A DNA stretch of 64,000 nucleotides, from IMG/VR virus record IMGVR_UViG_3300030390_002408. One strand, given 5' to 3'. The first letter of the stretch is position 1. Each line of letters starts with the position of its first letter. Both the position numbers and the translations under genes were made by a program. The DNA is from a virus. This document shows, one piece after another, positions 9,891 through 63,518 of the stretch. The notes under the pieces were generated by a model. That model ran no database searches, was not told the origin of the DNA, and saw only the letters and a list, made by a program, of their open reading frames with translations.

Positions 9891-9908
9891 CTTTAAACTA
9901 TTAATTTA

Positions 9909-41144: not shown

Positions 41145-41145
41145 A

Positions 41146-43690: not shown

Positions 43691-43697
43691 TTGACTT

Positions 43698-43907
43698 TTA
43701 CTTTATTTTAATAAATTCAACAGTTACAAATTCTCTTACTGCTTTTCCTAATTCTTGGTCATTAGGATATTTTTCAACAAACATTTTAATAACACTCATA
43801 TTAAGAGCTTCATACTTAAGTAATGATACCTCTCTGTCTATTGATTTTACTTCAGATCCTTCCATAATACTCATTTTGTTTTTCTTGTTTTGTAATTGTT
43901 TTATCAT
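43698..43907 (-). CDS. Hypothetical protein
   Basis: YPNDQELGKAVR motif. Start probably further downstream. Confidence 0.55.
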   Translation of the reverse strand: MIKQLQNKKNKMSIMEGSEVKSIDREVSLLKYEALNMSVIKMFVEKYPNDQELGKAVREFVTVEFIKIK

Positions 43908-44478
43908 GTATTAAACTCCACTCTTCGCTACTAGGTAAATATGATATAGTTTCATAACCTTCTAGAACTTCATGTACTTTATTTTTCCATTTAATTTTGG
44001 GGGTATTTCGATATACCCTCCACTGATGGTCTGGGAAATTAACCCAACCTTTATCATTTACATTCCAACCCCACTTCTGAATATGTTCTTCTGTTAAGCC
44101 TTTAACTGTATTAACTCTAGGAACTTTTAAAACATCTATTTTATTAAGTTTTAATACTTCAGGGATAAAATCCATCATGTAGTTAGTAGGTAATTCATCA
44201 GCGTCAATTTGAAAGATATAATCTTTAGTACAAGCTCTAGTTAATCTATTTTTCCAATCCGCAAAATGATTATTGAAGGTATCTTCAACTAGGGTAATAT
44301 GATTATTACTACTTAATTTATGGAGATAACCTAATAATTCAGAGGTTTGTGTATTTTTACTTAAATCTACTAAGACAACAATCTCATCATCTCTTCGCAT
44401 ACCATGCATTAAAAACGCTAATAATCGCTGAATTTCAATGAATTCGTTACATACAGTAACAGCATAACTTATATTCAT
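43852..44478 (-). CDS. GT2-family glycosyltransferase
   Basis: ISYAVTVCNE, FQIDADE, KVHE. Confidence 0.88.
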   Translation of the reverse strand: MNISYAVTVCNEFIEIQRLLAFLMHGMRRDDEIVVLVDLSKNTQTSELLGYLHKLSSNNHITLVEDTFNNHFADWKNRLTRACTKDYIFQIDADELPTNYMMDFIPEVLKLNKIDVLKVPRVNTVKGLTEEHIQKWGWNVNDKGWVNFPDHQWRVYRNTPKIKWKNKVHEVLEGYETISYLPSSEEWSLIHDKTITKQEKQNEYYGRI

Positions 44479-44497
44479 AATTGAATAATTTTATTAA

Positions 44498-44818
44498 TTA
44501 AAATGGTAATTCATCATCTCCTCCTTCTAGAGATTTTACCCTACTTTCAAGATTTTCAACTTGATTTAGTAACATATTAATTCTTTCTTCTAAACTTATT
44601 TCAGGTCGAAATGAGGATTTCTTCTTTTTGAAATATTCATCTAAAAATGATTTAGGATATGTTTTAACAACCCCCTCATAGTATGGGGTTGAAACTGACT
44701 GTTCAGAAACTTCAACATAATCATTATGGTTTAAAGCAGCATCCATAACTTCTTTTCCTAAATCAGGACCGGCTGCTTTCCCTAAATACTCATATAAACT
44801 TAATTGATCTTCACTCAT
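44498..44818 (-). CDS. Hypothetical protein with acidic DDELPF tail
   Basis: SSB-like C-terminal tip. Promoter at 44843-44873. Confidence 0.65.
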   Translation of the reverse strand: MSEDQLSLYEYLGKAAGPDLGKEVMDAALNHNDYVEVSEQSVSTPYYEGVVKTYPKSFLDEYFKKKKSSFRPEISLEERINMLLNQVENLESRVKSLEGGDDELPF

Positions 44819-44857
44819 AACTTTTACATTTTTATTTGTATTGAATATACTAAAATT

Positions 44858-45328
44858 TTATTGTTTTTCCAAACCATTTTGAAACACCCCAATAGAATCT
44901 ATGGCTTCAATAAAGTCTTTTTCATCAAATTCTACTAATGTTTCCATATCCATTCTCCACTCATAAAACTCACCTTTTTTGTTAGGGATTGGGTATTTTT
45001 CTTTTTCTTCTTCTTTAACTGGAACTGCACTTACAGCAGCCCACTTCCAGTTTTTTGAATTAGCCCCATTAGCAAATACCATTCCTTTTTCAGGGAGATT
45101 AATTGTAATAGGCATCCAAATTTTTCCGGTTTCATCTTCAACCATTAATTCTTTATGTAGGTTAGGAAGCATTTCTAACTGCTCTTCAAAGAATGTAGAG
45201 TCTTTTTTCATAACAGAATTAGATTGAAACCCACACCCATAACAAAAATAATTTTTTATTTCTTCATTTACTTCTTGGGTGTAACAAGCATCACTTCCAC
45301 ACTTATCACAAATTGTTAAATTATCCAT
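44858..45328 (-). CDS. Zinc-ribbon protein
   Basis: CDKCGSDAC...CYGCG. Confidence 0.7.
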   Translation of the reverse strand: MDNLTICDKCGSDACYTQEVNEEIKNYFCYGCGFQSNSVMKKDSTFFEEQLEMLPNLHKELMVEDETGKIWMPITINLPEKGMVFANGANSKNWKWAAVSAVPVKEEEKEKYPIPNKKGEFYEWRMDMETLVEFDEKDFIEAIDSIGVFQNGLEKQ

Positions 45329-46640
45329 TTGTTTCTACTTTTTTTAGTTTAGGTAATTCTATTTTATTTAGTTTAGGTAATTTTAACTCTACTTGTTTTG
45401 GGAAATCTGGAATGAATTCTATTAAGATTTCATCTAATTGTTTCTTCATCATTTCAAATGAGAAATCAGTTCTACTTTTATACCCTTGTCTTTTACCTTT
45501 AACTTTATACTCTTTATAATTTTCAAATACATCATTTAAGTAATGACCTATTTGTCCATGATCAACACTAAACCATTTAGATCCTTCAATAAGCATATCT
45601 TTCATTTGAGCTGAAGGGTGGATGTCTGTTAATTTCCCTCCTAATAAAGATGTTAATTCAGAATCTAAAAAGTCAGTATGGCCACTCCACCCCGTAGTAA
45701 TAACAGGCTTATTTGTAAGAGAAAATTCTAATAGGGGTCTACCAAATCCTTCTCCTTTGGTTAAATTAACCATAGATTTTATTTTAGGATGGTTATAAAT
45801 TTCATTCATTTCAACATCAGAAAATTCTCCATGTAATAGATAAATATTTGGGAGTTTATTTGATGGTATTGTATCTCTTATAAATTTTAATCTTTTTTGT
45901 ATTTCTTTCCTATCTAAATAAGAAGCCCCAGCAGTACTAGTTTTTAATATTAAAGCAGGTATTTTTGTTTTATTTTTAAATAACTCATAAAAGGCTTTAA
46001 CTAATAACCCCACATTTTTTCTATCTTCCCCCATACTTCCTTGCATCCAATGTCCTACAAACAAGTAAGCAAAATCTTCTTTTATTAAGTTAAGATCTTT
46101 ATAAAGTTCAATAGATTTAAAGTCTGAAGTTTTATTTAGAGGTTTATATAAATCTAAATTGGCTCCTTCAATTAATACTTTAATGGGTTTTTGCAGTTTT
46201 AAATCATGGGTTTGACCTGTTTCTTTATTTTTGGCTTGATAAACAGTTTGCTCAAATACATTTTTAGAATGGTTTGATGAGCATAGTATTAAATCCATTT
46301 TATTACATCCTTCAATCCATTGGGGAGCGCAAGCTGTTGTCTCAATTCCAGCAGTTAACCCAATATTATATTTGCCTACAGGTTGGAACTCATTAGGAAC
46401 TGTTACTTGACACCATATGTCAGGTTTTTCTGTTAATTGGGGACCTATTAAGTGTTTATTTAAAAATTCCCACTCAGGATGGTTATCAATAAATCCTTTT
46501 GGAGTACCTCCCCATCTTTGAGGGAGGACTTTAACATCATATTTATCTAATTCAATTAATGATTTGACATAATCTCTTGATCTAGCACCATACCCACTGT
46601 AGGTATCTATTGGACAACTTACTACAAATGTATTTTTCAT
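45321..46640 (-). CDS. GT4-like (GT-B) glycosyltransferase
   Basis: SGYG, RKN, KGEGFGRPLLE. Confidence 0.88.
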   Translation of the reverse strand: MKNTFVVSCPIDTYSGYGARSRDYVKSLIELDKYDVKVLPQRWGGTPKGFIDNHPEWEFLNKHLIGPQLTEKPDIWCQVTVPNEFQPVGKYNIGLTAGIETTACAPQWIEGCNKMDLILCSSNHSKNVFEQTVYQAKNKETGQTHDLKLQKPIKVLIEGANLDLYKPLNKTSDFKSIELYKDLNLIKEDFAYLFVGHWMQGSMGEDRKNVGLLVKAFYELFKNKTKIPALILKTSTAGASYLDRKEIQKRLKFIRDTIPSNKLPNIYLLHGEFSDVEMNEIYNHPKIKSMVNLTKGEGFGRPLLEFSLTNKPVITTGWSGHTDFLDSELTSLLGGKLTDIHPSAQMKDMLIEGSKWFSVDHGQIGHYLNDVFENYKEYKVKGKRQGYKSRTDFSFEMMKKQLDEILIEFIPDFPKQVELKLPKLNKIELPKLKKVETNG

Positions 46641-48070
46641 TAGTATATTAATTTATGTTTTAAAACTCTTTCTTCAAAATCTGTATCTTTAAGGAATTCA
46701 TAATTTCTTCGAGGTGTAAAAGTTTTAAATAACTCATCCATCCCTTCAATTACTCTTTCCCCCATAATCTTAGAAGTAAAACCTGCTTCTTCACCTGTAG
46801 CCCATTTCATCCCTTCTAAACCTATTCTTTCTCTCTCTTCAGAAGTCATTTTGTATAACTTCTCAATTTGTTTAGAAGCATCTTCAGCACTACATCTATC
46901 ATCCCAAATATAGGGAGTAGTAGGTGATCCTTGAATTGATAAATTAGTTGGATAAACTGGGAAGGCCCATTCACCATGTTTTTTATAAGTTCCTCTATTA
47001 TTAGATGGAAAATTTTCATCAAATTCAACCCATTTACTAGAGTCGTTATACTCAAATCTCATTTGATCTTGCATACCTCCTGTAGTGTTTGCGATAATAG
47101 GTGTCCCTGTTAATAAAGCTTCTGTTAAACTTAACCCCCAACCTTCATTTGATGTTAGTTGGATTTGAGCATCTGCTATATTATATAAAACATTCATTTG
47201 CTCGGAACTTAACTTATCTGTTGAAAATCTAATATTATGTCCTTCAGGAAACAAATAATCAATTATAGCAGGAAGATCAGTACCATTATCATCTACTGGT
47301 TGAGTATGGAGTACGAATGAACATTTATCTTGTTCTTCTTTTGATAAAGTATCCATAAAATACTTCCAAGCTAAGATTGTATCTGGGATTTGTTTTCTTC
47401 TGATATTTCGGGAATTGAAAAATAAAGTAAATTCAGGGGATTTTCCAGAGAATAACTGATTTTTCATTTCATTTAACAACTTATCTTCTTTATCTAAGGG
47501 TTTAAATACATTATTATCTAAACCATGAGGAACATATTTAATTACTTTTCCTTCTGCTTTATCCCCTAAAACTATTTTATTAATATTTACAGTTTGTTTT
47601 GAAATTCCAAATAAAGCATCGCAAGACTCATAATATTCTTTATTATATGCTGGAGCTGGATAATCATCCCATATATTGAGATAAGCAATTGGAATTTGTT
47701 TTCTTATTTCATTTTCCATTTTAAATAACCAAATGAAATATCTTGGGTCAGTAACTAAAAAGATAGCATCAGGTTTTTCTTCCTTTATTAAAGCTCTAAC
47801 CATATCTTCATTTCCATACCCATCAGTAGGATAAAGGATAACAGATGAATCATCAACTCCTGTTTTTTTATTAGTATCTTCGGATATGTCAAACTTCTTA
47901 CCGGCTTCAGGGTGTTGGATAGCTCCTGCTATTTGTACCCAATTATATCTGTGGCAAGTATTTAAAACTGTTTCTCTAGCAACTTGAGCTACCCCTGAAT
48001 GAACACGAATATCATCTGTAATTAGTAGGATTTTTTTCCTATCTTCTTTTTTAATATAACCTTCTTTCAT
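46640..48070 (-). CDS. GT4-like (GT-B) glycosyltransferase
   Basis: HSGVA, YVPHG, RNIRRK, NEGWGLSLTEA. Confidence 0.9.
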   Translation of the reverse strand: MKEGYIKKEDRKKILLITDDIRVHSGVAQVARETVLNTCHRYNWVQIAGAIQHPEAGKKFDISEDTNKKTGVDDSSVILYPTDGYGNEDMVRALIKEEKPDAIFLVTDPRYFIWLFKMENEIRKQIPIAYLNIWDDYPAPAYNKEYYESCDALFGISKQTVNINKIVLGDKAEGKVIKYVPHGLDNNVFKPLDKEDKLLNEMKNQLFSGKSPEFTLFFNSRNIRRKQIPDTILAWKYFMDTLSKEEQDKCSFVLHTQPVDDNGTDLPAIIDYLFPEGHNIRFSTDKLSSEQMNVLYNIADAQIQLTSNEGWGLSLTEALLTGTPIIANTTGGMQDQMRFEYNDSSKWVEFDENFPSNNRGTYKKHGEWAFPVYPTNLSIQGSPTTPYIWDDRCSAEDASKQIEKLYKMTSEERERIGLEGMKWATGEEAGFTSKIMGERVIEGMDELFKTFTPRRNYEFLKDTDFEERVLKHKLIY

Positions 48071-48312: not shown

Positions 48313-49251
48313 TTAGGATTTATCACACAATTCAGAATTATCAGAAAATGGGCAAAACCTACAATTCCATTTTGAAGGGTTCTGCTTAAATTCTCTCTCT
48401 TTATATCCTGATTTAGTGAAGGATTCATTAATAAAATCATCTATTGCTTTTGTTGCTCTATTTAATTTAACTTTCCCTGAGGGTGGTTTAAATAATTGTA
48501 CTCTCTTTTGTGGGAAATCTAAATTTTCATAAAGTTTTCTCTTAACAATGAAGAATTCAATATCAATATCCTCAAGTGGTACTCCAAACTGTTCTGAAAA
48601 GTATTTTTTATATAATATTAATTGGAATTGTTTTATTTCATCTTTTTTTGCTTGAGCATTCCAGCCTTTAGTACTTGTTTTAATATCAATAATATAAAAC
48701 TTATTTGTAGGTTCATGATATAATACTACATCCAAGTAACCTTGGTATACTACGTTGTTATAATGTTTATTAGGCGGCATTACAATAGGGATTTCACACC
48801 CCACCAAATACCATCCTTTCTTGGAAAAATACAAGTTTCTTTTTTTAGAAATATGTTTAAGTATTTTAATACCATCTTCATAAAATTCCCTCATTTCTTC
48901 GGGACTGCTGAAGTGATTGGAATTATTTTTCTTATATTGATTTTTATATTCTTCTCTGAATTTTTCTTCAAATAGCCCTATAATATCTTCTTTATCAGCC
49001 GCCACTCCACTTTCCTCATACATCACAGTAAGATAATGTTGGAGGGCTTCATGTAGTGCTGTACCAAACACTGTATGGATTGAAGGATTATAAATTTTCC
49101 TTCCTTCTTTATACTGTAATGACCATTGTTTAGGACAGTTAGTATACATTGAAAGTTGGGAGAATGAAATATTCTTTTGATAAGAATAATCAATTTTCTC
49201 AGTAGGAAAATTTTGAATGTCTTTTACTATTTTAGGGATTTTTCTAGCCAA
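48313..49251 (-). CDS. PD-(D/E)XK Cas4/RecB-like exonuclease
   Basis: CPKQW, GTALH, GYLD, IDIKT, QLILY, CRFC...C. Confidence 0.88.
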   Translation of the reverse strand: MARKIPKIVKDIQNFPTEKIDYSYQKNISFSQLSMYTNCPKQWSLQYKEGRKIYNPSIHTVFGTALHEALQHYLTVMYEESGVAADKEDIIGLFEEKFREEYKNQYKKNNSNHFSSPEEMREFYEDGIKILKHISKKRNLYFSKKGWYLVGCEIPIVMPPNKHYNNVVYQGYLDVVLYHEPTNKFYIIDIKTSTKGWNAQAKKDEIKQFQLILYKKYFSEQFGVPLEDIDIEFFIVKRKLYENLDFPQKRVQLFKPPSGKVKLNRATKAIDDFINESFTKSGYKEREFKQNPSKWNCRFCPFSDNSELCDKS

Positions 49252-51699: not shown

Positions 51700-51981
51700 T
51701 TAAACACCCTGTTTCCAATTAACTTCACCATAAATTCCATACTCTTTAGGCTCTTCAATTACTTCTTCTACTTCAACCTCTTCAGTTTTAATAGAATATA
51801 ACTTACTATCTAATGGATCTAATTTATAGGATCCTTTAAATTTTGTTTTGTGGAAGTATGCTTCTAAAGTGTCTGTAAGACTTTCATAAGTTTTATCCTC
51901 TTCTTCTATAAGAGCCCACCTGTCTCCAGGGGGTACTCTAATAGCTATTAACTCATTATGTTCTACTTTTTCAGTCTCCAT
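51700..51981 (-). CDS. Hypothetical protein
   Basis: TAATG-coupled to groEL. Confidence 0.65.
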   Translation of the reverse strand: METEKVEHNELIAIRVPPGDRWALIEEEDKTYESLTDTLEAYFHKTKFKGSYKLDPLDSKLYSIKTEEVEVEEVIEEPKEYGIYGEVNWKQGV

Positions 51982-53579
51982 TAATACATCATGTTAGGTT
52001 GTTGTTGTTCTTGATTTTCTTCAACAACTATACATTCAGTTAATAAAACAGTTCCTGCAACTGCCGCAGCATTTTCTAAGGCTGTTCTTGTTACTTTGGT
52101 AGGATCAATAATACCTTCTGATTTCATATTTACTACTTCTTCAGTTTTAAGATCATAACCCGACCAATAATCATTGTTTTTGGTTAATTTATCCATTAAA
52201 GATTTAGTTTTTTTCTTGTCATATCCCGCATTAGATAGAATTTGGATAAATGGTTTACCACAAGCTTGATATACAATATCAGACCCTATATCTGCGTCTT
52301 CAATGTTTTGTCTAGCATATAATAAAGCAACACCCCCACCTGGGACTATCCCTTCACTTAAAGCAGCTTGGGTAGCATTTAAGGCATCATCTACTCTATC
52401 TTTTTTCTCATTTAGCTCAGTTTCATTATGTCCTCCCACATGAATTATAGAAACACCCCCTACCATTTTAGATAATCGGTTTTGAAGTTGTTCGATTTCA
52501 AATGGAGTTGATGATGAGTCAATTTGAGATTGTAATTCTTCTACTCTCTGATTGATTTTTTCTTCATCACCCTTACCATCAACAATTGTTGTTTTTTCTT
52601 TAGTAACAGTTACAGCACGAGCTTCTCCAAACCATTCCCAGTTGAATTTCTCCAACTTCATTCCTTTACTTTTATCAAAAACCTGACCACCTGTTAGGGT
52701 AGCAATATCTTCTAAAATAAGTTTTCTTCTATCCCCAAAATCAGGAGCTTTAATAGCACAAACATTTAATGTACCTCTTTGTTTATTTACAATTAAAGTA
52801 GCCAAAGCTTCACTATCAATATCTTCAGCAATAATAATAAGAGATTTATTTGTATTAGAAATACTTTCTAAAATAGGTAATAACTCTTTAACTTGGGTGA
52901 ATTTATGATCAGCAATTAATATATAAGCATCTTTAATACTAGATGTCATTGTATTATTGTCCGTAACAAAATATGGGGATTTGTATCCTCTTTCAAATTG
53001 CATACCTTCAACAGTTTCAAGATAAGTTTCTCCTGATTTGCTTTCTTCAATATGGACTACCCCATCTCTTCCTACTTTCTCCATTGCAGTTGCTATTAAC
53101 TTTCCAACTTCTGGATCATTATTTGCTGAAATAGTTGCAATTTGTTCTAATTGGTTTTCTAAAGTAATGTCTTCAGATAAATCATTTCGAAGAGATTTAA
53201 CAACTTGCTTTACAGCTTTATCAATTCCTCTTTTAATTTCAACAGCATTTTCACCGGTATCTAGACTAGTAAGACCTAATTTAATCATTTCTCTAGCTAA
53301 AAGAGTTGATGTTGTTGTACCATCTCCGGCTTTATCAGCAGTATTAATAGCAGCTTGATTTACTAATTGAACCCCAGTTTCTTCAATTGGATCTTTTAGA
53401 TTAATATTCTTTGCTACTGTTACACCATCTTTTGTTGATTTTACAGCTTCACCTGGTTTTGAAATTACAACATTCCTACCATTTGGTCCTAAGGTACAAA
53501 CTACCGAATCTGCTAAGGTATCAATACCTTTAACTAATCGTGTTCTTCCTGCTTTTCCTAATTCTATAATTTTTGCCAT
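51981..53579 (-). CDS. groL: Chaperonin GroEL
   Basis: TLGPNGRNV, TKDGVTVAK, AGDGTTTST, PGGG. Start MAKIIEL. Confidence 0.97.
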   Translation of the reverse strand: MAKIIELGKAGRTRLVKGIDTLADSVVCTLGPNGRNVVISKPGEAVKSTKDGVTVAKNINLKDPIEETGVQLVNQAAINTADKAGDGTTTSTLLAREMIKLGLTSLDTGENAVEIKRGIDKAVKQVVKSLRNDLSEDITLENQLEQIATISANNDPEVGKLIATAMEKVGRDGVVHIEESKSGETYLETVEGMQFERGYKSPYFVTDNNTMTSSIKDAYILIADHKFTQVKELLPILESISNTNKSLIIIAEDIDSEALATLIVNKQRGTLNVCAIKAPDFGDRRKLILEDIATLTGGQVFDKSKGMKLEKFNWEWFGEARAVTVTKEKTTIVDGKGDEEKINQRVEELQSQIDSSSTPFEIEQLQNRLSKMVGGVSIIHVGGHNETELNEKKDRVDDALNATQAALSEGIVPGGGVALLYARQNIEDADIGSDIVYQACGKPFIQILSNAGYDKKKTKSLMDKLTKNNDYWSGYDLKTEEVVNMKSEGIIDPTKVTRTALENAAAVAGTVLLTECIVVEENQEQQQPNMMY

Positions 53580-53583
53580 CTCT

Positions 53584-53880
53584 TTATTTTTTAACTTTTG
53601 CAAGGATTTGATTTTCAGGTCCTATAAAATAATCATCCCCATCATACTCTAATTTTGTAAACCCCATAGTAGGTAGAATAACTATATCCCCTACTTTAAC
53701 TTGGGTTTCTATAAAACTCCCCATTAGTGTGGGCTTTCCAGGGCCTACAGCTATAACTTCTCCTCTTTCGTTTTTATCTTTTCCTAAATCTGGGACTACA
53801 ATATTTCCATATTGTTGTTCTTCGTTTTCTACAGGTTTAACGATAACTGCATCAAATAGTGCTTCTAAATTCATATTCAT
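53584..53880 (-). CDS. groS: Co-chaperonin GroES
   Basis: GEVIAVGPG, VKVGD; adjacent to groEL. Confidence 0.93.
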   Translation of the reverse strand: MNMNLEALFDAVIVKPVENEEQQYGNIVVPDLGKDKNERGEVIAVGPGKPTLMGSFIETQVKVGDIVILPTMGFTKLEYDGDDYFIGPENQILAKVKK

Positions 53881-54252: not shown

Positions 54253-54675
54253 TTAACTAATTTTTAAAACTTTTGCTTTTGACTTTGTTGAAAACGGAAC
54301 TGTTACTAACAGTAACCCATCTAAAAACATAGCATGTGCTTTGTTTAAATCAAATTTACTACTTACTTTATAACCTAAATTAAAGGAACGCTTTGCAATT
54401 CCTCGTGTAATGTATTTTCTATTTGGGGGTTCTGGAGATTTTTCTTTATCATGGATAAAGTGAATTATATCTCCATCAATTTTTACCTCAATTGTCTCTT
54501 TAGGAATGCCTGTACAAGCTAACTCAAAGGTTAAACCTAAGTCATCTTCAAAAACATTAATAGGGTGGGGTAATTTTGATTCAATTGCTGGGATGAAGTT
54601 ATTAGTAGCATCAAAGAAATTTTTTACTAATAAATCAAAGGGAAAGAATTCTCTTTCTAAAAAACGTGTACTCAT
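54253..54675 (-). CDS. Small heat shock protein (Hsp20/IbpA-like)
   Basis: ELACTG, RGIAKRSF, DGLLLVTVP. Confidence 0.9.
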   Translation of the reverse strand: MSTRFLEREFFPFDLLVKNFFDATNNFIPAIESKLPHPINVFEDDLGLTFELACTGIPKETIEVKIDGDIIHFIHDKEKSPEPPNRKYITRGIAKRSFNLGYKVSSKFDLNKAHAMFLDGLLLVTVPFSTKSKAKVLKIS

Positions 54676-54781: not shown

Positions 54782-55516
54782 TTAATACGAAGTTTCTGCT
54801 TTTCTTATTAAGAAATACTCACTTACAGTATCATCGGTTTTAAATTCCAATTTCATTAATCCCATATTACTTAAATAAAGTTTACCTTCTTCCATATCTT
54901 TATTGAAATTAAGTATAGTTTTGAAAGTATCTGAATTGAAAGGGATATTTAAATCTAATTCTTCTATATTACCTTTTAACTGGTATGTTATTTTATTATT
55001 ATGTCCTTGCTCATCTCCAAATACAATCTCACATACATTTTCCCCATCTAAATCTGTAGTAGTATTAACAGTTAAATTATCAATTCCTTGTAATGCACTT
55101 TTAGCTTTTACTAAATTTTCTACATCTTCAACAACTAAATCAATTTCAACACACCAATCAGGAACATTAACAGTACCTACTTTCCCAATAAGGAGAGGAT
55201 CTGATAGAGCATAATTAACATTGTAATTTAAATCTGATATTTTTAATTTTGTAAATGTTTCTTTTCTTTTATCTAATTCCAAAAGTAAATCTCCACTACA
55301 AATATTAACCAAATTTAATAGTTTTTTAGTATCAAAAATAGCTAATTTACTATCTTCAAGTGGGAAATCATTACAAATAACATTTCCTATAACATCCTTA
55401 GTAGGTGTCATAAAATCAATAGTTAATTGATTATCTTTAATAACCCACTTAACAGAACTGTTTATCCCTAAGTGATATTTATTTATTACACTTTGTAAAA
55501 CTCCTTTATTAATCAT
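54782..55516 (-). CDS. Sliding clamp (gp45-like)
   Basis: 244 aa two-domain pattern (AIFDTKKLL; GLMKLEF...YFL), coupled to the polymerase and near the clamp loader. Confidence 0.7.
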   Translation of the reverse strand: MINKGVLQSVINKYHLGINSSVKWVIKDNQLTIDFMTPTKDVIGNVICNDFPLEDSKLAIFDTKKLLNLVNICSGDLLLELDKRKETFTKLKISDLNYNVNYALSDPLLIGKVGTVNVPDWCVEIDLVVEDVENLVKAKSALQGIDNLTVNTTTDLDGENVCEIVFGDEQGHNNKITYQLKGNIEELDLNIPFNSDTFKTILNFNKDMEEGKLYLSNMGLMKLEFKTDDTVSEYFLIRKAETSY

Positions 55517-56442
55517 AAGTTAAAAAACATTTTTTGGTATGGGTTTAAAGATAATGTCCAATTTAAATCTGAATAAAATCCTTCTAATTTATTTAATAAT
55601 ATACTTGAAAATATTTTTTCCCTATCAGCATATTTCTCAATGAATATACGAATTTTATCTGGGTAGTCCCAGGGTAAAAGAGCAATAGATTCAATGTGGT
55701 ATGGGTTAGGTTTTAAGTAAATCCATTTTATTTTATCACTTTGAACAATTGGACTATGTTTTTTATCTAAATTCCAAAATTTTAATAAATCATTATAAAC
55801 TATAGCAGCTTTAACAGGAGCTGGTGCTCCTTTTCCTATAACTGAAAACATCTCCCCTGCTCTTGCTTTGCGTTCTGTGTATTTATTTAATTTTTTTACT
55901 GAGGTAGGGTTTGCTAAGTTTTCTAAGGGAACTTCCCCATTTAATATTTCTTCTCTAAACTTTTTAATCCTGCTATCAATTTCATCTTGTTTAGCTCCTT
56001 TTAAAGTATCAACTAAGGCTTTATGGAAAAACTTCCCAAGTGTAGGAGGGAAATTGGCTTTTTTAAATTCTAGACCCTTAACATCTAATTTTTCTTTAGC
56101 AATTCCTTCTTCTTTAGTTATCCATTGGGCATATCTCCGAGTTGCTCTGAAGTAAGCTGATCTTATAACACATTCTGTTTTCATTTCAAGTCTATGTTCT
56201 GGAGCATTAAAACAATTTTTAGCTAAGTCACCATAAGAGTCAGTAATGATATCTTGATATTTTAAAGCTATTTCTTCTAATTTATCATCTTTAATATTAC
56301 TATCAAGATCATCAAAATCAGAATACAAATGCTTTAATAAAGGCTCCGCATGGATGTAAATTGAATCTGTATCAGAGTAAGCTACATAATTAGTATCATC
56401 AGGATCACAAATCCACCAAGGTGTGTCTTCTATATGTTTCAT
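55513..56442 (-). CDS. Family B DNA polymerase, C-terminal subunit
   Basis: Motif C YSDTDS, RRYA, VKGLE. Confidence 0.92.
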   Translation of the reverse strand: MKHIEDTPWWICDPDDTNYVAYSDTDSIYIHAEPLLKHLYSDFDDLDSNIKDDKLEEIALKYQDIITDSYGDLAKNCFNAPEHRLEMKTECVIRSAYFRATRRYAQWITKEEGIAKEKLDVKGLEFKKANFPPTLGKFFHKALVDTLKGAKQDEIDSRIKKFREEILNGEVPLENLANPTSVKKLNKYTERKARAGEMFSVIGKGAPAPVKAAIVYNDLLKFWNLDKKHSPIVQSDKIKWIYLKPNPYHIESIALLPWDYPDKIRIFIEKYADREKIFSSILLNKLEGFYSDLNWTLSLNPYQKMFFNL

Positions 56443-56690
56443 TCTCTATCCATTAATTTCATAGGGGATTCATAATCTCCTCTACTATTTCGAGGTTTAC
56501 TTTCATTTTTTATGATATTGTAAGATAATCCTTTTATTTTAATACTCCCACCTTGTTGGAGCATTTTCTTAAATCTTAATAATTCTTTTTCTGTAAAGTC
56601 TTTTGATATTTCAATAATTTCTTCTTTTTCCATTTTAACACCCCCCAGATAGATGGTATGTTCTTTTCGTATTGATTGTTTTTTTAACAT
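56439..56690 (-). CDS. Small basic protein between the polymerase halves
   Basis: 1-nt gap upstream and ATGA overlap downstream. Confidence 0.7.
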   Translation of the reverse strand: MLKKQSIRKEHTIYLGGVKMEKEEIIEISKDFTEKELLRFKKMLQQGGSIKIKGLSYNIIKNESKPRNSRGDYESPMKLMDRE

Positions 56691-56691
56691 A

Positions 56692-58377
56692 TTATAGTTG
56701 TTTTTCTCCTCTAATAACAGAGTTAATATGACGGTTTGCTGTTAATGCTGATTCTTGTATAATTCGTTGCCCTGATAAAGTAATAGCTTCTGATAAAATT
56801 ACATTCCCGTATCTGAATGATCCTAAAGCTGTGGCCCCATATAGGGAATTTAATAAAATCTTCATAGTATATTGTTTCATATGAAATTGAGCTCCTAACC
56901 CTTCATCTCCACTTTTATAAGCTTTTTTCATTAGGGTTTTATACTCAACCCGTTCTTTAAACCACTTTTTTAGAATGGTGGATAATACAGACTCCCTATT
57001 AGTCTTAAACATAACCCCGTTTGCTGATATTGATAGGTTACTTTGTTTGATTATTGATATTATTTTTTTAACTTTTACTTTAGTCCTATCCCGTTTAACA
57101 TTTTCAACTATAAGTTCTTCATTTTGGTCTTGCTTTAATAAATCATTTAAACCTAACCTATTATTTCTATCATCTACATCTATAATTCTCCCAACCATGG
57201 TTTCTTTACCAATGTTGATAGTCATTATAATTGAAGGATATAGTGAAGTTAAATCTTCATCAAACATATAGTTATATATTCCGGCTTTGGGGCAAAAAAG
57301 ATAACCACCAGCATAGTTTTTCTTGGAAAACGGGTTTCTCTCTTTAGCAGGGGGGATAATACCTTCACTTAACAAATAAGCTGAAATAGCTCCATCTTGT
57401 GTTTTAGTATTAGCATAAACTTCACTATAATTATGTTTTCCTTTATGGGATAGATTTTTAACTAAAGATAAATACTCTAATTTTTTATCTAACTCAACTA
57501 AAATCTCAACATCCCGGAAGTTATAATCAATGAATTTATTAATGTCTGTTTCGAATAACCTATCTAAATTCCCTTCATACTCAATCTTCCCCAGATTAAC
57601 ATACTTTTCACCAATTGAATCTAGCCTCATTGAAGGTTCATCTCTCTGACTAAATTTCTTATGTAATCTCATGTAATCTAAGGATTCAACTCCTGGGATT
57701 TGTATGAATTGATCTTTAAACCATGGGGTCTCTCTAACATAATTAATAGGGGATAGGTAATTAGCTATATCTTCTCCTAAAACATTACATATTCGATAAT
57801 ATAAGTAAGGTACATCAAAATAATCACTATTCCATCCTATTATAATATCAGGATCTATTTCCCTAAATCTTTCTAGAAATTTACCTAATAATTCCCCTTC
57901 AGTACGACATGGAATAATTTCTTTATTCCCCTGCTTAGTAGGTTTTATTTGATTCTTAGGATCTAAGATTATACAAGCCCACTCATCTACCTGTTTATCG
58001 TACCATGCAATTGATGTAACCTTTTTAGGGGCAGACTTTATATACTCTTCAGTAAGCGCCTCCCCCATTTCAATCTCAATATCAAAGAATAATTCCCTGT
58101 GTGTTATTGAGGGTTCATCATTGATTCCATACTTTTCAACTAGGAACTTTTGATAAGGGGGCATGTCATGAAAGTGAAGTTTTGAATTTTCCTTATTCCA
58201 GTTAGAAACCTTTTTAAGTGATTCTCCATTTAACCCTGTATGGGTAGCTTCACCTTCATTACATTCAACGTATGCCTTGTTGATCCATTCTACTCTTTCA
58301 TAACCTTGATCAGTCCACTCATGAATTAAATATTTATTTCCTTGTAATCTCCGAGCAAATGCCTTTTTAAAACCCAT
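56692..58377 (-). CDS. Family B DNA polymerase, N-terminal subunit (3'-5' exonuclease, motifs A and B)
   Basis: FDIE, GWNSDYFD, YNFRDV, DLTSLYPSII, KILLNSLYG. Confidence 0.95.
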   Translation of the reverse strand: MGFKKAFARRLQGNKYLIHEWTDQGYERVEWINKAYVECNEGEATHTGLNGESLKKVSNWNKENSKLHFHDMPPYQKFLVEKYGINDEPSITHRELFFDIEIEMGEALTEEYIKSAPKKVTSIAWYDKQVDEWACIILDPKNQIKPTKQGNKEIIPCRTEGELLGKFLERFREIDPDIIIGWNSDYFDVPYLYYRICNVLGEDIANYLSPINYVRETPWFKDQFIQIPGVESLDYMRLHKKFSQRDEPSMRLDSIGEKYVNLGKIEYEGNLDRLFETDINKFIDYNFRDVEILVELDKKLEYLSLVKNLSHKGKHNYSEVYANTKTQDGAISAYLLSEGIIPPAKERNPFSKKNYAGGYLFCPKAGIYNYMFDEDLTSLYPSIIMTINIGKETMVGRIIDVDDRNNRLGLNDLLKQDQNEELIVENVKRDRTKVKVKKIISIIKQSNLSISANGVMFKTNRESVLSTILKKWFKERVEYKTLMKKAYKSGDEGLGAQFHMKQYTMKILLNSLYGATALGSFRYGNVILSEAITLSGQRIIQESALTANRHINSVIRGEKQL

Positions 58378-58380
58378 AAA

Positions 58381-58884
58381 TTATTGTTTACAACTTTCTA
58401 TTTCTTCTTTAGTGAAAAATTGTTTCAAATCAGGTCTAAAATAATTAATGTTTTTCATTACTTTATTATCTCTTGTTCTATACACAACAAAACCCTTATC
58501 AGTTTCTTCATAATGACATGCTTCACCTTGTTGTTCAGAACGTAATTTAACAGTTTCTTTAGCTTCTTCTTCAGTAGAACAAATTTTAGACATATTAGAA
58601 GCTTGTACTTCATTGTAGCCTTTAATTAATTTATCCTTTAAACCAAAAACTAAGGCACCATTCCCTAAACCTACATAAGTAATATCAAGAATAGCATCAA
58701 ATATTTCAACAATATCTTTATTTTCAACTGCTTCTTTTAATTCATCTAATTCTTCCTGGATGAAATCAATTACAAATTGGGCATCTTTAGGATTAATAGT
58801 AGGGGTTGTTCGGTTTTGGTAGCCTTTCCCCATTATTTCATTAAACTCTTCTACTTCATCTACAAATGGTACTTTACTTTTCAT
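58381..58884 (-). CDS. MazG-like/PRA-PH-type nucleoside triphosphate pyrophosphohydrolase
   Basis: IQEELDEL, EIFDAILDITYV, EVQASNMSK. Confidence 0.85.
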   Translation of the reverse strand: MKSKVPFVDEVEEFNEIMGKGYQNRTTPTINPKDAQFVIDFIQEELDELKEAVENKDIVEIFDAILDITYVGLGNGALVFGLKDKLIKGYNEVQASNMSKICSTEEEAKETVKLRSEQQGEACHYEETDKGFVVYRTRDNKVMKNINYFRPDLKQFFTKEEIESCKQ

Positions 58885-58907
58885 AACTATTTACTTTTAT
58901 TTTTGAT

Positions 58908-59579
58908 TTATTTACTTATTAATGATAAAAATTCTCTCCTTAATGTGTTACTATCATCTCTGAATTTACCTCCCATTTTAGATGTAATTGTTGATGATGT
59001 AGTATCTCTAATTCCTCTACTTTTAACACAATAGTGAACACCTTCAACTACTACTGCAATGTCATCTGTTTCTAAAATACATTGAAGAGCAAAGTATATT
59101 TGTTCTGTTAATCTTTCTTGAATTTGGGGTCTTTTTGCAAAGAAATCTACAATTCTATTTAACTTACTTAACCCTAATACTTTCTCACCTGGGATGTATC
59201 CTATATGACAAAATCCATCAATAACTACAAAATGATGTTCACAATTACTAATACAAGTAATATCTTTTTCAATGACTAATTCATCGTATTTCATTTTGTT
59301 ATCTACTGTGGTACATTTTGGGAAATTATTATAATCTAAACCATAAAAAATTTCATTCATGTACATTTTAGCTACTCTATTTGGAGTATCCATTAAAGAA
59401 TCATCTTCTAGATCTAAGCCCAAAACTTCCATTATTTTAGTAAAGTGAGATTTTATACTTTCTATTTTCTCTTGGTGAGAACCCTCAAATTGGGGTTTCA
59501 TGGGTATTTCAACTCCTTTACTAATTAAATGGTTTTGAACTTTTAAACCTAATTCTGCATTTACTTTATCTTTCTGCAT
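58908..59579 (-). CDS. folE: GTP cyclohydrolase I
   Basis: TPNRVAKMY, CEHHF, GLSKLNR, QIQERL, HYCVKSRG. Confidence 0.96.
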   Translation of the reverse strand: MQKDKVNAELGLKVQNHLISKGVEIPMKPQFEGSHQEKIESIKSHFTKIMEVLGLDLEDDSLMDTPNRVAKMYMNEIFYGLDYNNFPKCTTVDNKMKYDELVIEKDITCISNCEHHFVVIDGFCHIGYIPGEKVLGLSKLNRIVDFFAKRPQIQERLTEQIYFALQCILETDDIAVVVEGVHYCVKSRGIRDTTSSTITSKMGGKFRDDSNTLRREFLSLISK

Positions 59580-59631
59580 TTCATGTTTTATTTAATATGA
59601 ATATAATATAATTTTTTCGCTAAACCTAAGA

Positions 59632-60063
59632 TTACTTGACATAATCCGGAATCATTTTAGAATCCTCTCTTTCCCAAGGGTATACAATCCATTCATCCTT
59701 TATTACCGACTCGCAATAAATATGAGGGGTAATTGAAGATACTTCAGGCTTGTAATGTAAGGTAGCAGTTGTATAATAAGGTTGATAGTATTGGAGGGTT
59801 TTACCAGAATCGCAGATATCATCTATTACGAGTATAGAATCCTTCTTTTTCTTCCACCAAGTTATAGGATCTAAAGTTTCAACTTCAATAAAGGGTATAC
59901 CCAATTTATGAGAAACCATAACAGCTGGGATTAATCCACCTCTTGGTAGTCCTGTAACAGATTCAATTATGTGGGGGTATTTTGTTGATTGTATTTTTTG
60001 ACATAGATTTTCTACTAATCCTTCTATATCCCTCCATGATAGGAATAATTTTTCTTTTTCCAT
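59632..60063 (-). CDS. Type I purine phosphoribosyltransferase (XGPRT-like)
   Basis: PRGGL, LVIDDICDSGKT, WIVYPWE. Confidence 0.9.
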   Translation of the reverse strand: MEKEKLFLSWRDIEGLVENLCQKIQSTKYPHIIESVTGLPRGGLIPAVMVSHKLGIPFIEVETLDPITWWKKKKDSILVIDDICDSGKTLQYYQPYYTTATLHYKPEVSSITPHIYCESVIKDEWIVYPWEREDSKMIPDYVK

Positions 60064-60081
60064 TATTTTTGGTTATTTATA

Positions 60082-60858
60082 TTAGACTCCTCTTTCAGTA
60101 TCAAAAGCAATTATATGATCTCTTCCAGTCATGTTATATCCTATTTCAGCACATAAGTTAAAGACTAGAGGGTACATTTTTAATAGTGTTTCTCTAGTAT
60201 CACCTGCGGGCATTATGTAGGTTTTGTTTTTAGGGATATTCATATCTGCTCTAAATTTTTCAATTTCCTCTAGATTTCCATCAGTTCCATCCCATACTGG
60301 TTTGTAATGGTAATCTTTATGATAATCTAAGGTTTTTGCGATTTCAGGGAGATTTAGTCTGAATTTGTTGTGTTGGTTTATCATTTTCTTATCTGCTACC
60401 TTCCCATTAGGAGTAATAGCTCCTATAACAGGGACACTATTAGAAAATTTAGGACTAAGAGAAATAAGACCAATTGGAAAATCAGTTTCTAAAAAACGAG
60501 AGCCTTCAGTTTCTATAGTAATTAATATTCCTCTCTCATTTGCAAAGTGGGTTAACTCATTAACCAAAGTGGGATGCATTGTTGGAGATCCCCCAGTAAG
60601 CATCATTTCTTCTATGTGAGGATTTTCATCATAGATTTTTATAATATCGTTAAATGTAAATGTTCCTCTTTCAGGGTGGATAGAAGTATACCAACTATCA
60701 CACCATCCACCTTCTCCAAAATAACATCTATGAGTGCAACCCGTAGTTCTTACAGCTATAGTAGGTCTTCCAAATCTACTCCCTTCAGATTGTACGCACC
60801 TATAAACTTCCAAAACCGGGAGAATTTTATTATAATCTTCTAATCGTTTTAAACCCAT
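60082..60858 (-). CDS. queE: 7-carboxy-7-deazaguanine synthase (radical SAM)
   Basis: VQSEG, RTTGC...WCDS, LTGG, IETEG, LSPK; cluster context. Confidence 0.88.
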   Translation of the reverse strand: MGLKRLEDYNKILPVLEVYRCVQSEGSRFGRPTIAVRTTGCTHRCYFGEGGWCDSWYTSIHPERGTFTFNDIIKIYDENPHIEEMMLTGGSPTMHPTLVNELTHFANERGILITIETEGSRFLETDFPIGLISLSPKFSNSVPVIGAITPNGKVADKKMINQHNKFRLNLPEIAKTLDYHKDYHYKPVWDGTDGNLEEIEKFRADMNIPKNKTYIMPAGDTRETLLKMYPLVFNLCAEIGYNMTGRDHIIAFDTERGV

Positions 60859-60867
60859 ATTAATATT

Positions 60868-61332
60868 TTATTCACTATAAATAGCACTATTTTTACTATG
60901 TTCTTGGAATTCTACTTTAATAATCCTTACTCTATTATCTGTTTCTTCTAGAATAAAAGGATTAATCTTGTCGTATATGAATTTAGCAAATGACTCTGCA
61001 CCAGTGGACGGGATTACTCTAGTCTGCGTTAATTTATGAGTATCCATGGCTTTAAAACCATCTAAATATGGATCATCTTCAGCAACTATTAAAGTATGGT
61101 CAAACATATAATCCATCCACTCTTTAGGTGATTTACCATCTATTTTTCCATTAGCTCTTTTCATTCCTCCGAAATCCCAAACCCAATTCCTTTCATCTAA
61201 TTCACCTTCAAACCATATTCTAAAACTTACACCATAACCATGGAGATATTTACAATGTGTTGTTTCTGCTTTCCATTGACGAAAAACACAACTGAACCCA
61301 TCAAATAATTTTGTTGATTGAAATTTAGCCAT
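60868..61332 (-). CDS. queD: 6-carboxytetrahydropterin synthase
   Basis: HCKYLHGY, WDFG, FDH, AE, EHSKN. Confidence 0.88.
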   Translation of the reverse strand: MAKFQSTKLFDGFSCVFRQWKAETTHCKYLHGYGVSFRIWFEGELDERNWVWDFGGMKRANGKIDGKSPKEWMDYMFDHTLIVAEDDPYLDGFKAMDTHKLTQTRVIPSTGAESFAKFIYDKINPFILEETDNRVRIIKVEFQEHSKNSAIYSE

Positions 61333-61582
61333 TATACCATTCTTTTAATTGTTGTAAAGTTTTTCCTCCTCCTGATGTTCTTTTAATCTCATTACCCTGT
61401 AAATCGGTTAGGATTAAAGAAGGAATATTTCTAATGTTATATTGCTGGACTATTGAGGGTTCATAATCACAATTAACTTTTTTAACATTAATTCCTTCTG
61501 AAATTAGATCATCTATTTTAGGACCTAATTGCTTGCATCCAGCACACCAAGGTGCTGTAAAATATATAATTCCTTTATTCAT
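61325..61582 (-). CDS. Thioredoxin
   Basis: WCAGC active site and cis-Pro motif (IPS). Confidence 0.88.
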   Translation of the reverse strand: MNKGIIYFTAPWCAGCKQLGPKIDDLISEGINVKKVNCDYEPSIVQQYNIRNIPSLILTDLQGNEIKRTSGGGKTLQQLKEWYNG

Positions 61583-61598
61583 AATTAATTTTTTAAAT

Positions 61599-61817
61599 TT
61601 AGACTAATTCTTCTATTATTCCTACTATTTCACTAACGATAAGTATCCCACAAGCCAAAGCCAAGTTAAAAGGTAAAAAACCATAACCTATTATTCTTAT
61701 TCCTGATTTTATAAAACTTGTTATTTGGTGTAATTTAGCGTCGGGGTGTTTTTCTGTTTCTACCATGTTAAAATTAAAATTTAAATCCTTAAAGGCTTCG
61801 TTAAGTCCATCACTCAT
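61599..61817 (-). CDS. Small membrane protein
   Basis: Hydrophobic C-terminal half. Confidence 0.6.
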   Translation of the reverse strand: MSDGLNEAFKDLNFNFNMVETEKHPDAKLHQITSFIKSGIRIIGYGFLPFNLALACGILIVSEIVGIIEELV

Positions 61818-61839
61818 GTTTAGTTTATTTTTTTAATTA

Positions 61840-62712
61840 TTAATCTCTACCTAACTCGGCTATTTGGTTTATTTCATCATGTTGGGTTAAAACTTTTACT
61901 ACGTGAGATTTTGCCACTTCATAATCTACAACCCCTGTTTCATCTTCGTATTGTACTGGGTCTTTTCTTCCTAATTTGATAAATGCTTCAATTCTTTCTA
62001 CTGATGAAGCTGATTTGTAATCAGAATTTCCACTTGGATAAGGCTTGTAAGAAGTATTTGTACGAGAGTAAACATCATCAAAATCAACATTTAACCCATC
62101 ACATAATTTTTCCCCATCTAAAAGAATATCATATTTATCCCCATTTAAATAAGGTGTATAATAACCTACTCTTTCGGCTTCCCAATTTCCTAGTCTAAAA
62201 GCATTATCATCAGCATCTCTAAATTCTTGCCTACAATCTGGATAAACTGCATGATCACCTGCATGAATCCCTAAAGCAATTGATGTTTTTTCTTTTGTTA
62301 CATTAGCAACTGATAAAGCTATTGCTTGAGTGATTGAAGCAAATATCTTATTTCTATTAGGTACAACTGTTGCTTTCATATTATCTTCAGCATAATGTCC
62401 TTCAGGTACTTCTTCACCTCCCGTTACTAAATTTGAATCTAATAAATCAACTAATCCATCTAATTTAATTACTCTGTATTTTAATTTACTTGCTATACCT
62501 AAATCACTTTGAGATAAATGATCAATTAAAGATTTTGCTTTTTCTAATTCAACTCTATGTTTTTGACCATAATCAAAAGAAATAGCAGTTACTGTTTTAA
62601 AGTTTTTAATACATTTTAATAATAATGTACTTGAATCCATTCCACCTGATAGTGATACTACAGCATGTTTAGGTTTTTGGAAATCTGGATGGTCAAATTC
62701 TAATTGTGTCAT
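61840..62712 (-). CDS. queC: 7-cyano-7-deazaguanine synthase (zinc-site cysteines absent)
   Basis: SGGMDS PP-loop, FDYGQKH, VPNRN, YPDCR. Confidence 0.9.
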   Translation of the reverse strand: MTQLEFDHPDFQKPKHAVVSLSGGMDSSTLLLKCIKNFKTVTAISFDYGQKHRVELEKAKSLIDHLSQSDLGIASKLKYRVIKLDGLVDLLDSNLVTGGEEVPEGHYAEDNMKATVVPNRNKIFASITQAIALSVANVTKEKTSIALGIHAGDHAVYPDCRQEFRDADDNAFRLGNWEAERVGYYTPYLNGDKYDILLDGEKLCDGLNVDFDDVYSRTNTSYKPYPSGNSDYKSASSVERIEAFIKLGRKDPVQYEDETGVVDYEVAKSHVVKVLTQHDEINQIAELGRD

Positions 62713-62723
62713 AATTTTAATTT

Positions 62724-63518
62724 TTATTTAATGAATGATTTAAATTTATTTATGTTGTATAAGGCTATATCCCAATTTTTAGCATTTCCTTCAAATTTAT
62801 CTACTTTAGTTGATATCTTTTCTTTTAGTCCTCCATCTTCATATTTTATTCCTGCCAAGCCATGTATAACAGGATTTGAAGTGTCTATTGACTCTATAAA
62901 AGGAAATAATTCTTTAGAGTACCAACTAAACTCTTGGGGGACATTACATCCTAGTAAGTGGACTTTATCAGTTGCATTAATAACTCCTTTATTATATAAA
63001 AATCTTATAGTATTATATCTCCCATGAGCTTTAGTTAAGAAAACATTATTTTTATCTGGGGATGATACTAATCCTTCTTGATAATACCAATCAGCTCCAT
63101 AACTAAATGCAATTTTCTTATATCCTTGCATTTTTAAAATAATATAACACTCCCAAGCTTCAATCTTATCATTAGCTTGAACTACTGCTACTGGGGTTGT
63201 ATTTTCAGGATATGATTTTCTTATCCAAGATTTAGCTGAAACTAGTGTTTTTGTTTTTTCTTGCCAATAGTCAGGAACTATAAATTCATTAGGTTTAAAA
63301 TAATCTAACCAATAACTTAAACGATCTAAATCATAGGGTTGTCCTAATTCATGTAAAGAATTATCCATAACAATATAACGTCCTAGTTTTTTAGACTCTT
63401 CAAAGTATTGTTTATAGTCCTCACTTTCATCTAAAAGATGAGGAAGGAGATAACAGTAATCTGTTAACTCTCTTACTTCTCCCATATAAGGAATGGGGGC
63501 TTCATGTGCTACTATCAT
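62724..63518 (-). CDS. TGT/DpdA-like TIM-barrel transglycosylase
   Basis: MDNS, VPD, AVVQ, VHLLG, SIDTS motifs; adjacent to queC. Confidence 0.6.
   Translation of the reverse strand: MIVAHEAPIPYMGEVRELTDYCYLLPHLLDESEDYKQYFEESKKLGRYIVMDNSLHELGQPYDLDRLSYWLDYFKPNEFIVPDYWQEKTKTLVSAKSWIRKSYPENTTPVAVVQANDKIEAWECYIILKMQGYKKIAFSYGADWYYQEGLVSSPDKNNVFLTKAHGRYNTIRFLYNKGVINATDKVHLLGCNVPQEFSWYSKELFPFIESIDTSNPVIHGLAGIKYEDGGLKEKISTKVDKFEGNAKNWDIALYNINKFKSFIK

Follow-up and report, generated by a model that had tools for sequence, protein, structure and literature searches.

A DpdA3-type 7-deazaguanine module with a FolE-linked, Gpt-like phosphoribosyltransferase in an uncultured marine phage

Genes at the locus

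The window studied here, by which we mean the whole 64,000-nucleotide stretch of the IMG/VR virus record IMGVR_UViG_3300030390_002408, carries near one end a module of genes for making a 7-deazaguanine base and a transglycosylase of the DpdA3 family, and the source of this module is an uncultured, T4-like marine phage. The module belongs to the already described DpdA3 kind, whose gene set recurs in at least 530 IMG/VR contigs, and indicates no new pre-replicative route, and we lean toward the view that the base is put in after the DNA has been replicated. An initial annotation, made from the sequence, had named nine genes here, and all nine were found, co-directional and tightly packed on the minus strand from 63518 down to 58381. 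Family matches bear out that queC, queD, queE, a phosphoribosyltransferase (PRTase) gene, folE, and a MazG-like gene run in one direction into the family-B DNA polymerase (PolB) genes. The features are as follows.

62724–63518, minus strand: DpdA3-like transglycosylase, 264 amino acids (aa); phrog_19058, fold, and homology, without a Pfam match
61840–62712, minus strand: QueC, 7-cyano-7-deazaguanine (preQ0) synthase, 290 aa; PF06508 at 1e-37, TIGR00364 at 5e-37
61599–61817, minus strand: conserved open reading frame (ORF) of 72 aa; no family match
61325–61582, minus strand: thioredoxin, 85 aa; PF00085 at 6e-15
60868–61332, minus strand: QueD, 6-carboxytetrahydropterin synthase, 154 aa; PTPS PF01242 at 4e-15, phrog_2389 at 2e-41
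60082–60858, minus strand: QueE, 7-carboxy-7-deazaguanine (CDG) synthase, 258 aa; radical SAM, phrog_2076 at 9e-46, TIGR03365 at 3e-14
59632–60063, minus strand: compact Gpt/XGPRT-like PRTase, 143 aa; PF00156, phrog_8995
58908–59579, minus strand: FolE, GTP cyclohydrolase I, 223 aa; PF01227 at 5e-60, NF006824 at 7e-95, above its cut-off
58381–58884, minus strand: MazG/PRA-PH-like, DR2231-like all-alpha NTP pyrophosphohydrolase, 167 aa; PF01503 at 1e-9
56692–58377 and 55513–56442, minus strand: split PolB, ORFs of 561 and 309 aa, a neighbor outside the module; phrog_262

The genes for QueC, QueD, QueE, and FolE lie within 4.6 kb, on the same strand as that for DpdA3; nearly all long ORFs of the window, whose G+C content is about 30%, are on this strand as well. 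The cluster lies 480 bp from the window's end, and the analysis covered the window and, from an identical IMG/VR contig of 5.2 kb, a further 2.9 kb upstream of DpdA3, which hold only a holin-like gene and ORFs of unknown function. A promoter and terminator scan of the 55–64-kb region gave results at chance level (46 promoter-like sites versus 50.6 expected).

The DpdA3 transglycosylase

The 264-aa transglycosylase has no Pfam or NCBIfam match, and its relatives were found by tblastn, where it shares 36% identity with the annotated DpdA of Flavobacterium phage immuto over 98% of its length (7e-40) and 35% with a protein conserved in the CP220 group of Campylobacter phages (3e-35). A profile that includes the DpdA3 of the window detects CP220 at 9e-70. 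The phiST-type members show 20–22% identity in the family alignment, and the phiST DpdA3 used as a tblastn query gave no direct match to the window. The AlphaFold2 (AF2) model of the protein is a (beta/alpha)8 barrel of the tRNA-guanine transglycosylase (TGT) type, with a predicted local distance difference test score (pLDDT) of 93.5 and a predicted template modeling score (pTM) of 0.90, and its best Foldseek matches in the PDB are the DNA preQ0 insertase DpdA (7ui4) and tRNA-guanine transglycosylases, at a probability of 1.0. The initial annotation had called this gene TGT-like and asked for an HHpred search of it; the fold search answers that question, and the call stands.

In an alignment of 20 DpdA3 family members, residues D52, N53, D83, Q114, G190, and D212 are invariant, and there is no conserved cysteine cluster. 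D52, D83, and D212 are candidate counterparts of the nucleophile and the base-recognizing Asp residues of TGT enzymes. With 264 aa versus 413 for the DpdA of 7ui4, DpdA3 is the smallest TGT relative. The isoelectric points of DpdA3 proteins (4.6–6.7) were considered as a sign against DNA binding and set aside as uninformative, the DpdA1 of Vibrio phage VpKK5 being equally acidic.

The DpdA3 family was named by Hutinet, Cui et al. (NAR 2023, PMC10516641), who found the DNA of immuto, phiST, and CP220 to be without deoxyguanosine (dG), i.e., with complete G replacement, and who argued for post-replicative insertion by DpdA3. An IMG/VR search seeded with DpdA3 found the family on at least 534 contigs, and among the 80 loci that were kept, QueC is present in 73, QueD in 65, QueE in 55, and FolE in 40. 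A homologue of the 72-aa ORF occurs in 45 of these 80 loci, mostly between QueC and thioredoxin, and thioredoxin adjoins QueD in 48. No complete or near-complete genome among those checked lacks DpdA3; a single 100%-complete contig has no DpdA3 near its PRTase gene and encodes it 35 kb away. In one relative at 67% identity (L003), a 164-aa ORF without a known family lies between DpdA3 and QueC (6295–6789), an Endonuclease_NS gene (9591–10211) follows QueE at the place where the window has its PRTase, and ThyX is encoded just upstream of DpdA3.

The small size of DpdA3 and its lack of a conserved cysteine cluster might also suit an enzyme that acts on free nucleotides. In such a scheme, the pyrophosphohydrolase would yield dGMP, DpdA3 would swap the base on free dGMP, kinases would rebuild the triphosphate, and the PRTase would recycle the guanine. 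This would fit the failure of DpdA3 to modify DNA in E. coli (PMC10516641) and the kinase-like genes (Tmk-like and AAA_18) that stand beside DpdA3 in the immuto and phiST clusters. However, neither the window nor any of the 80 DpdA3-seeded loci has a homologue of Tmk or AAA_18, dUTP seems to be the target of the MazG-like protein (see below), and isoelectric point gave no separation of DpdA3 from DpdA1. We also know of no TGT-family enzyme that acts on mononucleotides. We regard this scheme as very improbable.

Base synthesis and the expected base

FolE, QueD, QueE, and QueC together convert GTP to the free base preQ0. The QueC of the window is 74% identical to that of immuto, which must deliver preQ0 to QueF, and preQ0 is therefore predicted as the inserted base. 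The initial annotation had seen no queF in the window, and we concur: tblastn with immuto QueF gave no match there, QueF was absent among the approximately 50 window ORFs scanned against PHROGs or Pfam, and the extra 2.9 kb of the identical contig holds no QueF. Nor were DpdN and Tmk of immuto or DpdL and AAA_18 of phiST found when these were used as tblastn queries against the window. Pathway genes can be dispersed, as in immuto, where about 12 kb separate QueC from the cluster to which it belongs. On these sequence grounds, dPreQ0 is expected to replace dG to a high degree or completely, provided that no QueF or other tailoring gene is encoded beyond the window.

The PRTase and its link to FolE

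The initial annotation had offered two roles for the PRTase, one being to make a nucleotide of preQ0 and the other to salvage the guanine released by the transglycosylase. In the first, which is a pre-replicative scheme, the PRTase would join preQ0 or CDG to phosphoribosyl pyrophosphate (PRPP), host kinases and ribonucleotide reductase (RNR) would convert the resulting nucleotide to a modified dNTP, and the MazG-like enzyme would hydrolyze dGTP. The sequence, the neighbors, and the distribution of the PRTase all bear on this choice.

The closest PDB sequences to the PRTase are 4trb (Sulfolobus GpT-1), 1vdm (Pyrococcus), and 1a95 (E. coli Gpt), all of them 6-oxopurine PRTases. The NCBIfam xanthine PRTase model (PRK09177/NF006613) matches at 3e-15 with 56.1 bits versus a cut-off of 138, below the equivalog threshold, and by its sequence the protein is a divergent Gpt/XGPRT relative and not an equivalog. 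When the PRTase is aligned with E. coli Gpt and seven phage homologues, R37, G38, G39, D88, D89, D92, T96, W134, and W139 (E. coli Gpt numbering) are invariant, the stacking tryptophan (the W134 equivalent) thus being kept in the phage enzymes. Two further residues, D85 (equivalent to Gpt D92 and human HGPRT Asp137) and K105 of an HYKP motif, are invariant across the viral PRTase family. 7-Deazapurines have no N7, and the retention of an Asp that contacts N7 therefore argues for a true purine as the likely substrate. The contacts are those of the human HGPRT–GMP complex, in which Asp137 contacts N7 of the purine and Lys165 both N7 and O6 (Table 2, PMC2228302), and the invariance of this Asp counts against the pre-replicative scheme. 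The viral family is compact (130–145 aa), and in the sequence alignment the segment corresponding to Gpt residues ∼58–80 amounts to about 12 residues in the window PRTase and is gone in many relatives.

A PRTase-seeded IMG/VR search showed that at least 531 contigs encode the family, and we analyzed the 10-kb neighborhoods of the best 80 loci. FolE is present within 10 kb in 72 of the 80, QueD or QueE in 61–62, the MazG-like protein in 61, and DpdA3 in 40. The genes for the PRTase and FolE are adjacent in 58 of the 72 loci that have both, with a median gap of 63 bp and in both orders (PRTase before FolE in 23 loci, after it in 49), whereas the median distance of the PRTase is 2.7 kb to QueC and 3.4 kb to DpdA3. 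The PRTase thus clusters with FolE, which consumes GTP, and not with QueC, which produces preQ0, and this again speaks against ribosylation of preQ0. The link between the PRTase and FolE need not involve physical binding, because two kinase steps separate them.

Among 50,697 isolate phage records, PRTase homologues occur in immuto, in the phiST group, and in CP220/CP21, and further carriers are two Brevundimonas phages, one cyanophage, two gut phage records, and four Vibrio Queuovirinae phages; the family is almost confined to phages with 7-deazaguanine genes. In cyanophage BUCT-ZZ01, the PRTase gene lies between those for QueE and QueD, and in Brevundimonas phage MaInes, it abuts folE. In Vibrio phage VpKK5 (KM378617.2; L005:5917–6819), a Queuovirinae phage, a 300-aa protein annotated as a GTP cyclohydrolase is a fusion of PRTase and FolE: an N-terminal mini-PRTase of about 111 aa (with PRGG, DDIIDSGAT, and WVVFPWE motifs) is followed by a full FolE domain, and a TGT-type gene stands beside the fused gene. 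Pfam does not pick up the PRTase part of this FolE, and looking for longer PRTases with fused domains yielded only two uninformative proteins.

In MaInes (ON529866.1; L004 and L101), the genes for FolE and the Gpt-like PRTase have a dNMP kinase and RNR as neighbors. Also present are a distant DpdA3-like ORF (profile E 1e-9), which adjoins the DNA polymerase gene, and weak QueC-like matches; this phage may have an unrecognized deazaguanine system.

The PRTase is not a constant part of the module. Among the DpdA3-seeded loci, 27 encode FolE as well as the MazG-like protein and thus cover its usual site; only 10 of these have the PRTase, which is absent from the other 17 as well as from four full modules located with the MazG-like protein as the seed. 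To judge from these sequences, the PRTase looks like an optional helper. Since it is dispensable, it is unlikely to be the sole entry of the base into DNA, as the pre-replicative scheme would have it, and a helper that could be replaced by host Gpt or Hpt could be dispensable. The constancy of DpdA3 in complete and near-complete genomes points the same way.

With FolE and not DpdA3 as its close partner, the PRTase might serve general salvage that has no tie to the transglycosylase, capturing guanine, xanthine, or hypoxanthine that the breakdown of host nucleic acids sets free, for a GTP pool drained by FolE. Two contigs (L062 and L081) show FolE and the PRTase only, and nucleases are encoded both in the window (an exonuclease at 48313–49251 and an endonuclease at 28319–29215) and in relatives (the Endonuclease_NS gene of L003). 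However, these FolE-only contigs are fragments that are at most 53% complete, and among the isolates the PRTase family keeps almost entirely to phages with 7-deazaguanine genes rather than to phages that merely degrade host DNA. Although sequence data alone do not separate general salvage from salvage of the guanine expelled by DpdA3, we consider the former unlikely.

The MazG-like pyrophosphohydrolase

The MazG-like protein is the most conserved of the module, with 55–80% identity across loci, and the residues of its metal motif EExxE...DxxD (E44, E45, E48, D63, and D67) are invariant in the family. A PDB sequence search with it gave spurious Noc matches and a weak match to AF_0060 only. Its AF2 model (pLDDT 93) has as its best and sole full-length match among solved structures the dUTP-specific DR2231 (Foldseek E 1.6e-3; VIA Z 9.4, root-mean-square deviation (rmsd) 3.3 Å, 125 residues aligned), above the dGTP-acting S-2L MazZ (7ody), which is a weaker match (Z 6.7, rmsd 3.8 Å, 98 aligned). 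HisE, MazG, and S-2L MazZ align with the helical bundle only.

The MazG-like gene also alternates with dUTPase among five phage genomes. The trimeric dUTPase family PF00692 is absent from G001 (which is 100% complete), G004, and immuto, which carry the MazG-like protein, whereas CP220 has a PF00692 dUTPase and no MazG-like protein, and in phiST the place after FolE is taken by a dimeric-dUTPase/MazG-like gene. The wider MazG-like family is found in many phages without deazaguanine genes. A thymidylate synthase, ThyA, is encoded in the window at 27006–28073 on the minus strand. Given this ThyA, the modeled fold match, and the alternation, the simplest reading is that the MazG-like protein is probably a phage dUTPase. 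The initial annotation had it depleting dGTP, which it probably does not do.

This weakens the pre-replicative scheme further, and so does the lack of any nucleoside monophosphate (NMP) kinase, RNR, or nucleoside diphosphate kinase (NDK) among the scanned window ORFs. Moreover, a ribonucleotide intermediate would load the analogue into RNA too. The scheme does have points in its favor: TubE, which is encoded in a FolE/QueD/QueE context, has been proven to be a PRTase specific for CDG (PMC6112128), the PRTase family is found in all three phage groups with complete replacement, an NTP pyrophosphohydrolase lies within the module in 61 of the 80 PRTase-seeded loci, and DpdA3 activity has never been reconstituted (PMC10516641). 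Weighing these, we judge it distinctly unlikely that the PRTase makes preQ0 or CDG nucleotides for the polymerase.

Polymerase and other genes of the window

The PolB next to the module is split, with phrog_262 positions 35–567 (the exonuclease and the start of the polymerase domain) in the 561-aa ORF and positions 565–841 in the 309-aa ORF, and an 83-aa ORF without a known family lies between the halves (56439–56690). We considered this adjacency as a functional link and rejected it, related modules standing beside PolA (immuto), Pol III alpha (phiST), or nothing comparable.

The rest of the window is phage-like and encodes clamp loader subunits, an exonuclease, GroEL, Hsp20, ThyA, HNH and other endonucleases, a virion protein, and a sugar-modifying block. 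The last of these (38739–48070, minus strand) comprises two glycosyltransferases (476 and 439 aa), an aminotransferase, a nucleotide-sugar epimerase, methyltransferase-like proteins, and a GtrB-like protein; its possible targets are the virion, the surface of the host, and the DNA. Near the replication genes are a 540-aa GroEL chaperonin (51981–53603, minus strand; phrog_5725, 7e-149) and an Hsp20-like small heat-shock protein (54253–54675, minus strand). At 355 aa, ThyA exceeds the matching profile region and aligns with phrog_5682 in two stretches, which suggests an insertion. A transposase-like ORF (33798–34406, minus strand) and an HNH endonuclease gene (36173–36808, minus strand) lie among genes of unknown function and may be mobile elements in the phage genome.

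Proposed mechanism

The reading that we find the most convincing, and that we hold to be probable, is post-replicative exchange by DpdA3, probably of guanine for preQ0, with optional salvage of guanine by a PRTase that feeds GTP to FolE and with the MazG-like protein as a dUTPase. FolE, QueD, QueE, and QueC would supply preQ0 from GTP, and DpdA3, by homology to the enzymes of the dG-free DpdA3 phages, would swap guanine in replicated phage DNA for this base. Each inserted base would free one guanine, which would amount to a large purine flux if all G were replaced. The Gpt-like PRTase could convert the freed guanine to GMP and thus return it to the GTP pool that FolE consumes, removing the product of the exchange at the same time. 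The MazG-like protein, as a dUTPase, would supply dUMP to the phage ThyA. The evidence, through the linkage to FolE and the retained Asp that contacts N7, favors the second role that the initial annotation had offered for the PRTase, in which it salvages guanine set free by the transglycosylase. The first role has lost ground, the PRTase being optional, keeping that Asp, and having no kinase or reductase partner in the window.

Several observations weigh against this reading. Crippen et al. in 2019 reportedly found modified nucleotides in the pools of infected cells. Hutinet, Cui et al. mention the ADG nucleoside in the cytoplasm, and their tests of DpdA3 in E. coli failed (PMC10516641). The enzyme has never been reconstituted, and post-replicative exchange by DpdA3 itself is therefore unproven (PMC10516641). 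The PRTase family is encoded by all three isolate groups with 100% G replacement, which could mean that it has a role in the completeness of replacement. Its optional status was judged on contig fragments, and phiST and CP220 carry their PRTase elsewhere in the genome. Most of the segment aligned to Gpt ∼58–80, which in type I PRTases holds the mobile catalytic loop (loop II), is lost, and the chemistry of the phage enzyme may therefore differ from that of Gpt. PRTases that act on 7-deazaguanines do exist, as TubE uses CDG and PRPP (PMC6112128). Finally, the dUTPase reading depends on a fold match to DR2231 at 16–18% identity and on five phage genomes.

Taken together, the possibility that complete G replacement is wholly or partly pre-replicative, whether because the PRTase ribosylates preQ0 or CDG as TubE does or because DpdA3 acts on dGMP, seems unlikely to us. 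If it were true, the PRTase, the NTP pyrophosphohydrolase, and DpdA3 would form a nucleotide-pool pathway and not a DNA-repair-like exchange. To our knowledge, DpdA3 phages are the sole viruses in which every guanine is replaced by a 7-deazaguanine. Under post-replicative exchange, the module would suggest a loop of purine economy, in which guanine expelled from DNA becomes GTP and then more of the replacement base. The association of a Gpt-like PRTase with FolE, seen on hundreds of viral contigs in either gene order and as a fusion in one lineage, goes unmentioned in the papers searched.

Comparison with known systems

The Z-genome system of S-2L (PurZ, MazZ, and DatZ) likewise has an all-alpha NTP pyrophosphohydrolase beside base-replacement genes and a polymerase. 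It differs in that the window has no enzyme of nucleotide-level synthesis and no HD-type dNTPase, and replacement is attributed to the transglycosylase. More generally, the set expected of a pre-replicative system of the T4 hydroxymethylcytosine (hmC) or S-2L type was looked for among the scanned window ORFs, and they include no NMP kinase, RNR, or nucleotide-modifying enzyme.

TubE and ToyH of the tubercidin and toyocamycin pathways (PMC6112128) resemble the phage PRTase in being purine-type PF00156 PRTases encoded beside FolE, QueD, and QueE homologues. By description rather than by sequence, TubE differs in its length of 194 aa, and these clusters have GMP-reductase-type tailoring enzymes and no transglycosylase, whereas in the phage module DpdA3 is always present and the tailoring enzymes are absent. 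With Gpt/XGPRT, the phage PRTase shares the DDxxD(S/T)GxT PRPP motif, the RGG loop, the stacking Trp, a C-terminal PWE, and a length (143 aa) near the 152 aa of E. coli Gpt. It is, however, only 23% identical to E. coli Gpt and below the equivalog cut-off, with the ∼58–80 segment short or missing, and it is virus-encoded within a deazaguanine operon.

DR2231 of Deinococcus radiodurans (2yeu and 5hva, with dUMP and dUMPNPP complexes) shares with the MazG-like protein the EExxE...DxxD motif and a match over the whole length, including the part after the four-helix bundle, but the identity is only 16–18% and substrate specificity is not readable from the sequence.

The closest comparison is with the immuto-type DpdA3 phages. 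The window differs from immuto and phiST in lacking QueF, DpdN, the Tmk-like protein, DpdL, and AAA_18, so that the expected base is preQ0 and not fdPreQ1 or DG; its DpdA3 heads the cluster beside QueC, and its polymerase neighbor is a split PolB versus PolA or Pol III alpha. The PRTase goes unmentioned in PMC10516641, where the term "phosphoribosyl" is absent. Common to the window and these phages are DpdA3 (35–36% identity), FolE, QueD, QueE, and QueC (74%), and with immuto the window also shares the local order PRTase–FolE–(x)–NTP pyrophosphohydrolase. To this group the window adds a DpdA3 module that contains QueC and no QueF, and it predicts a phage whose DNA is fully substituted with dPreQ0.

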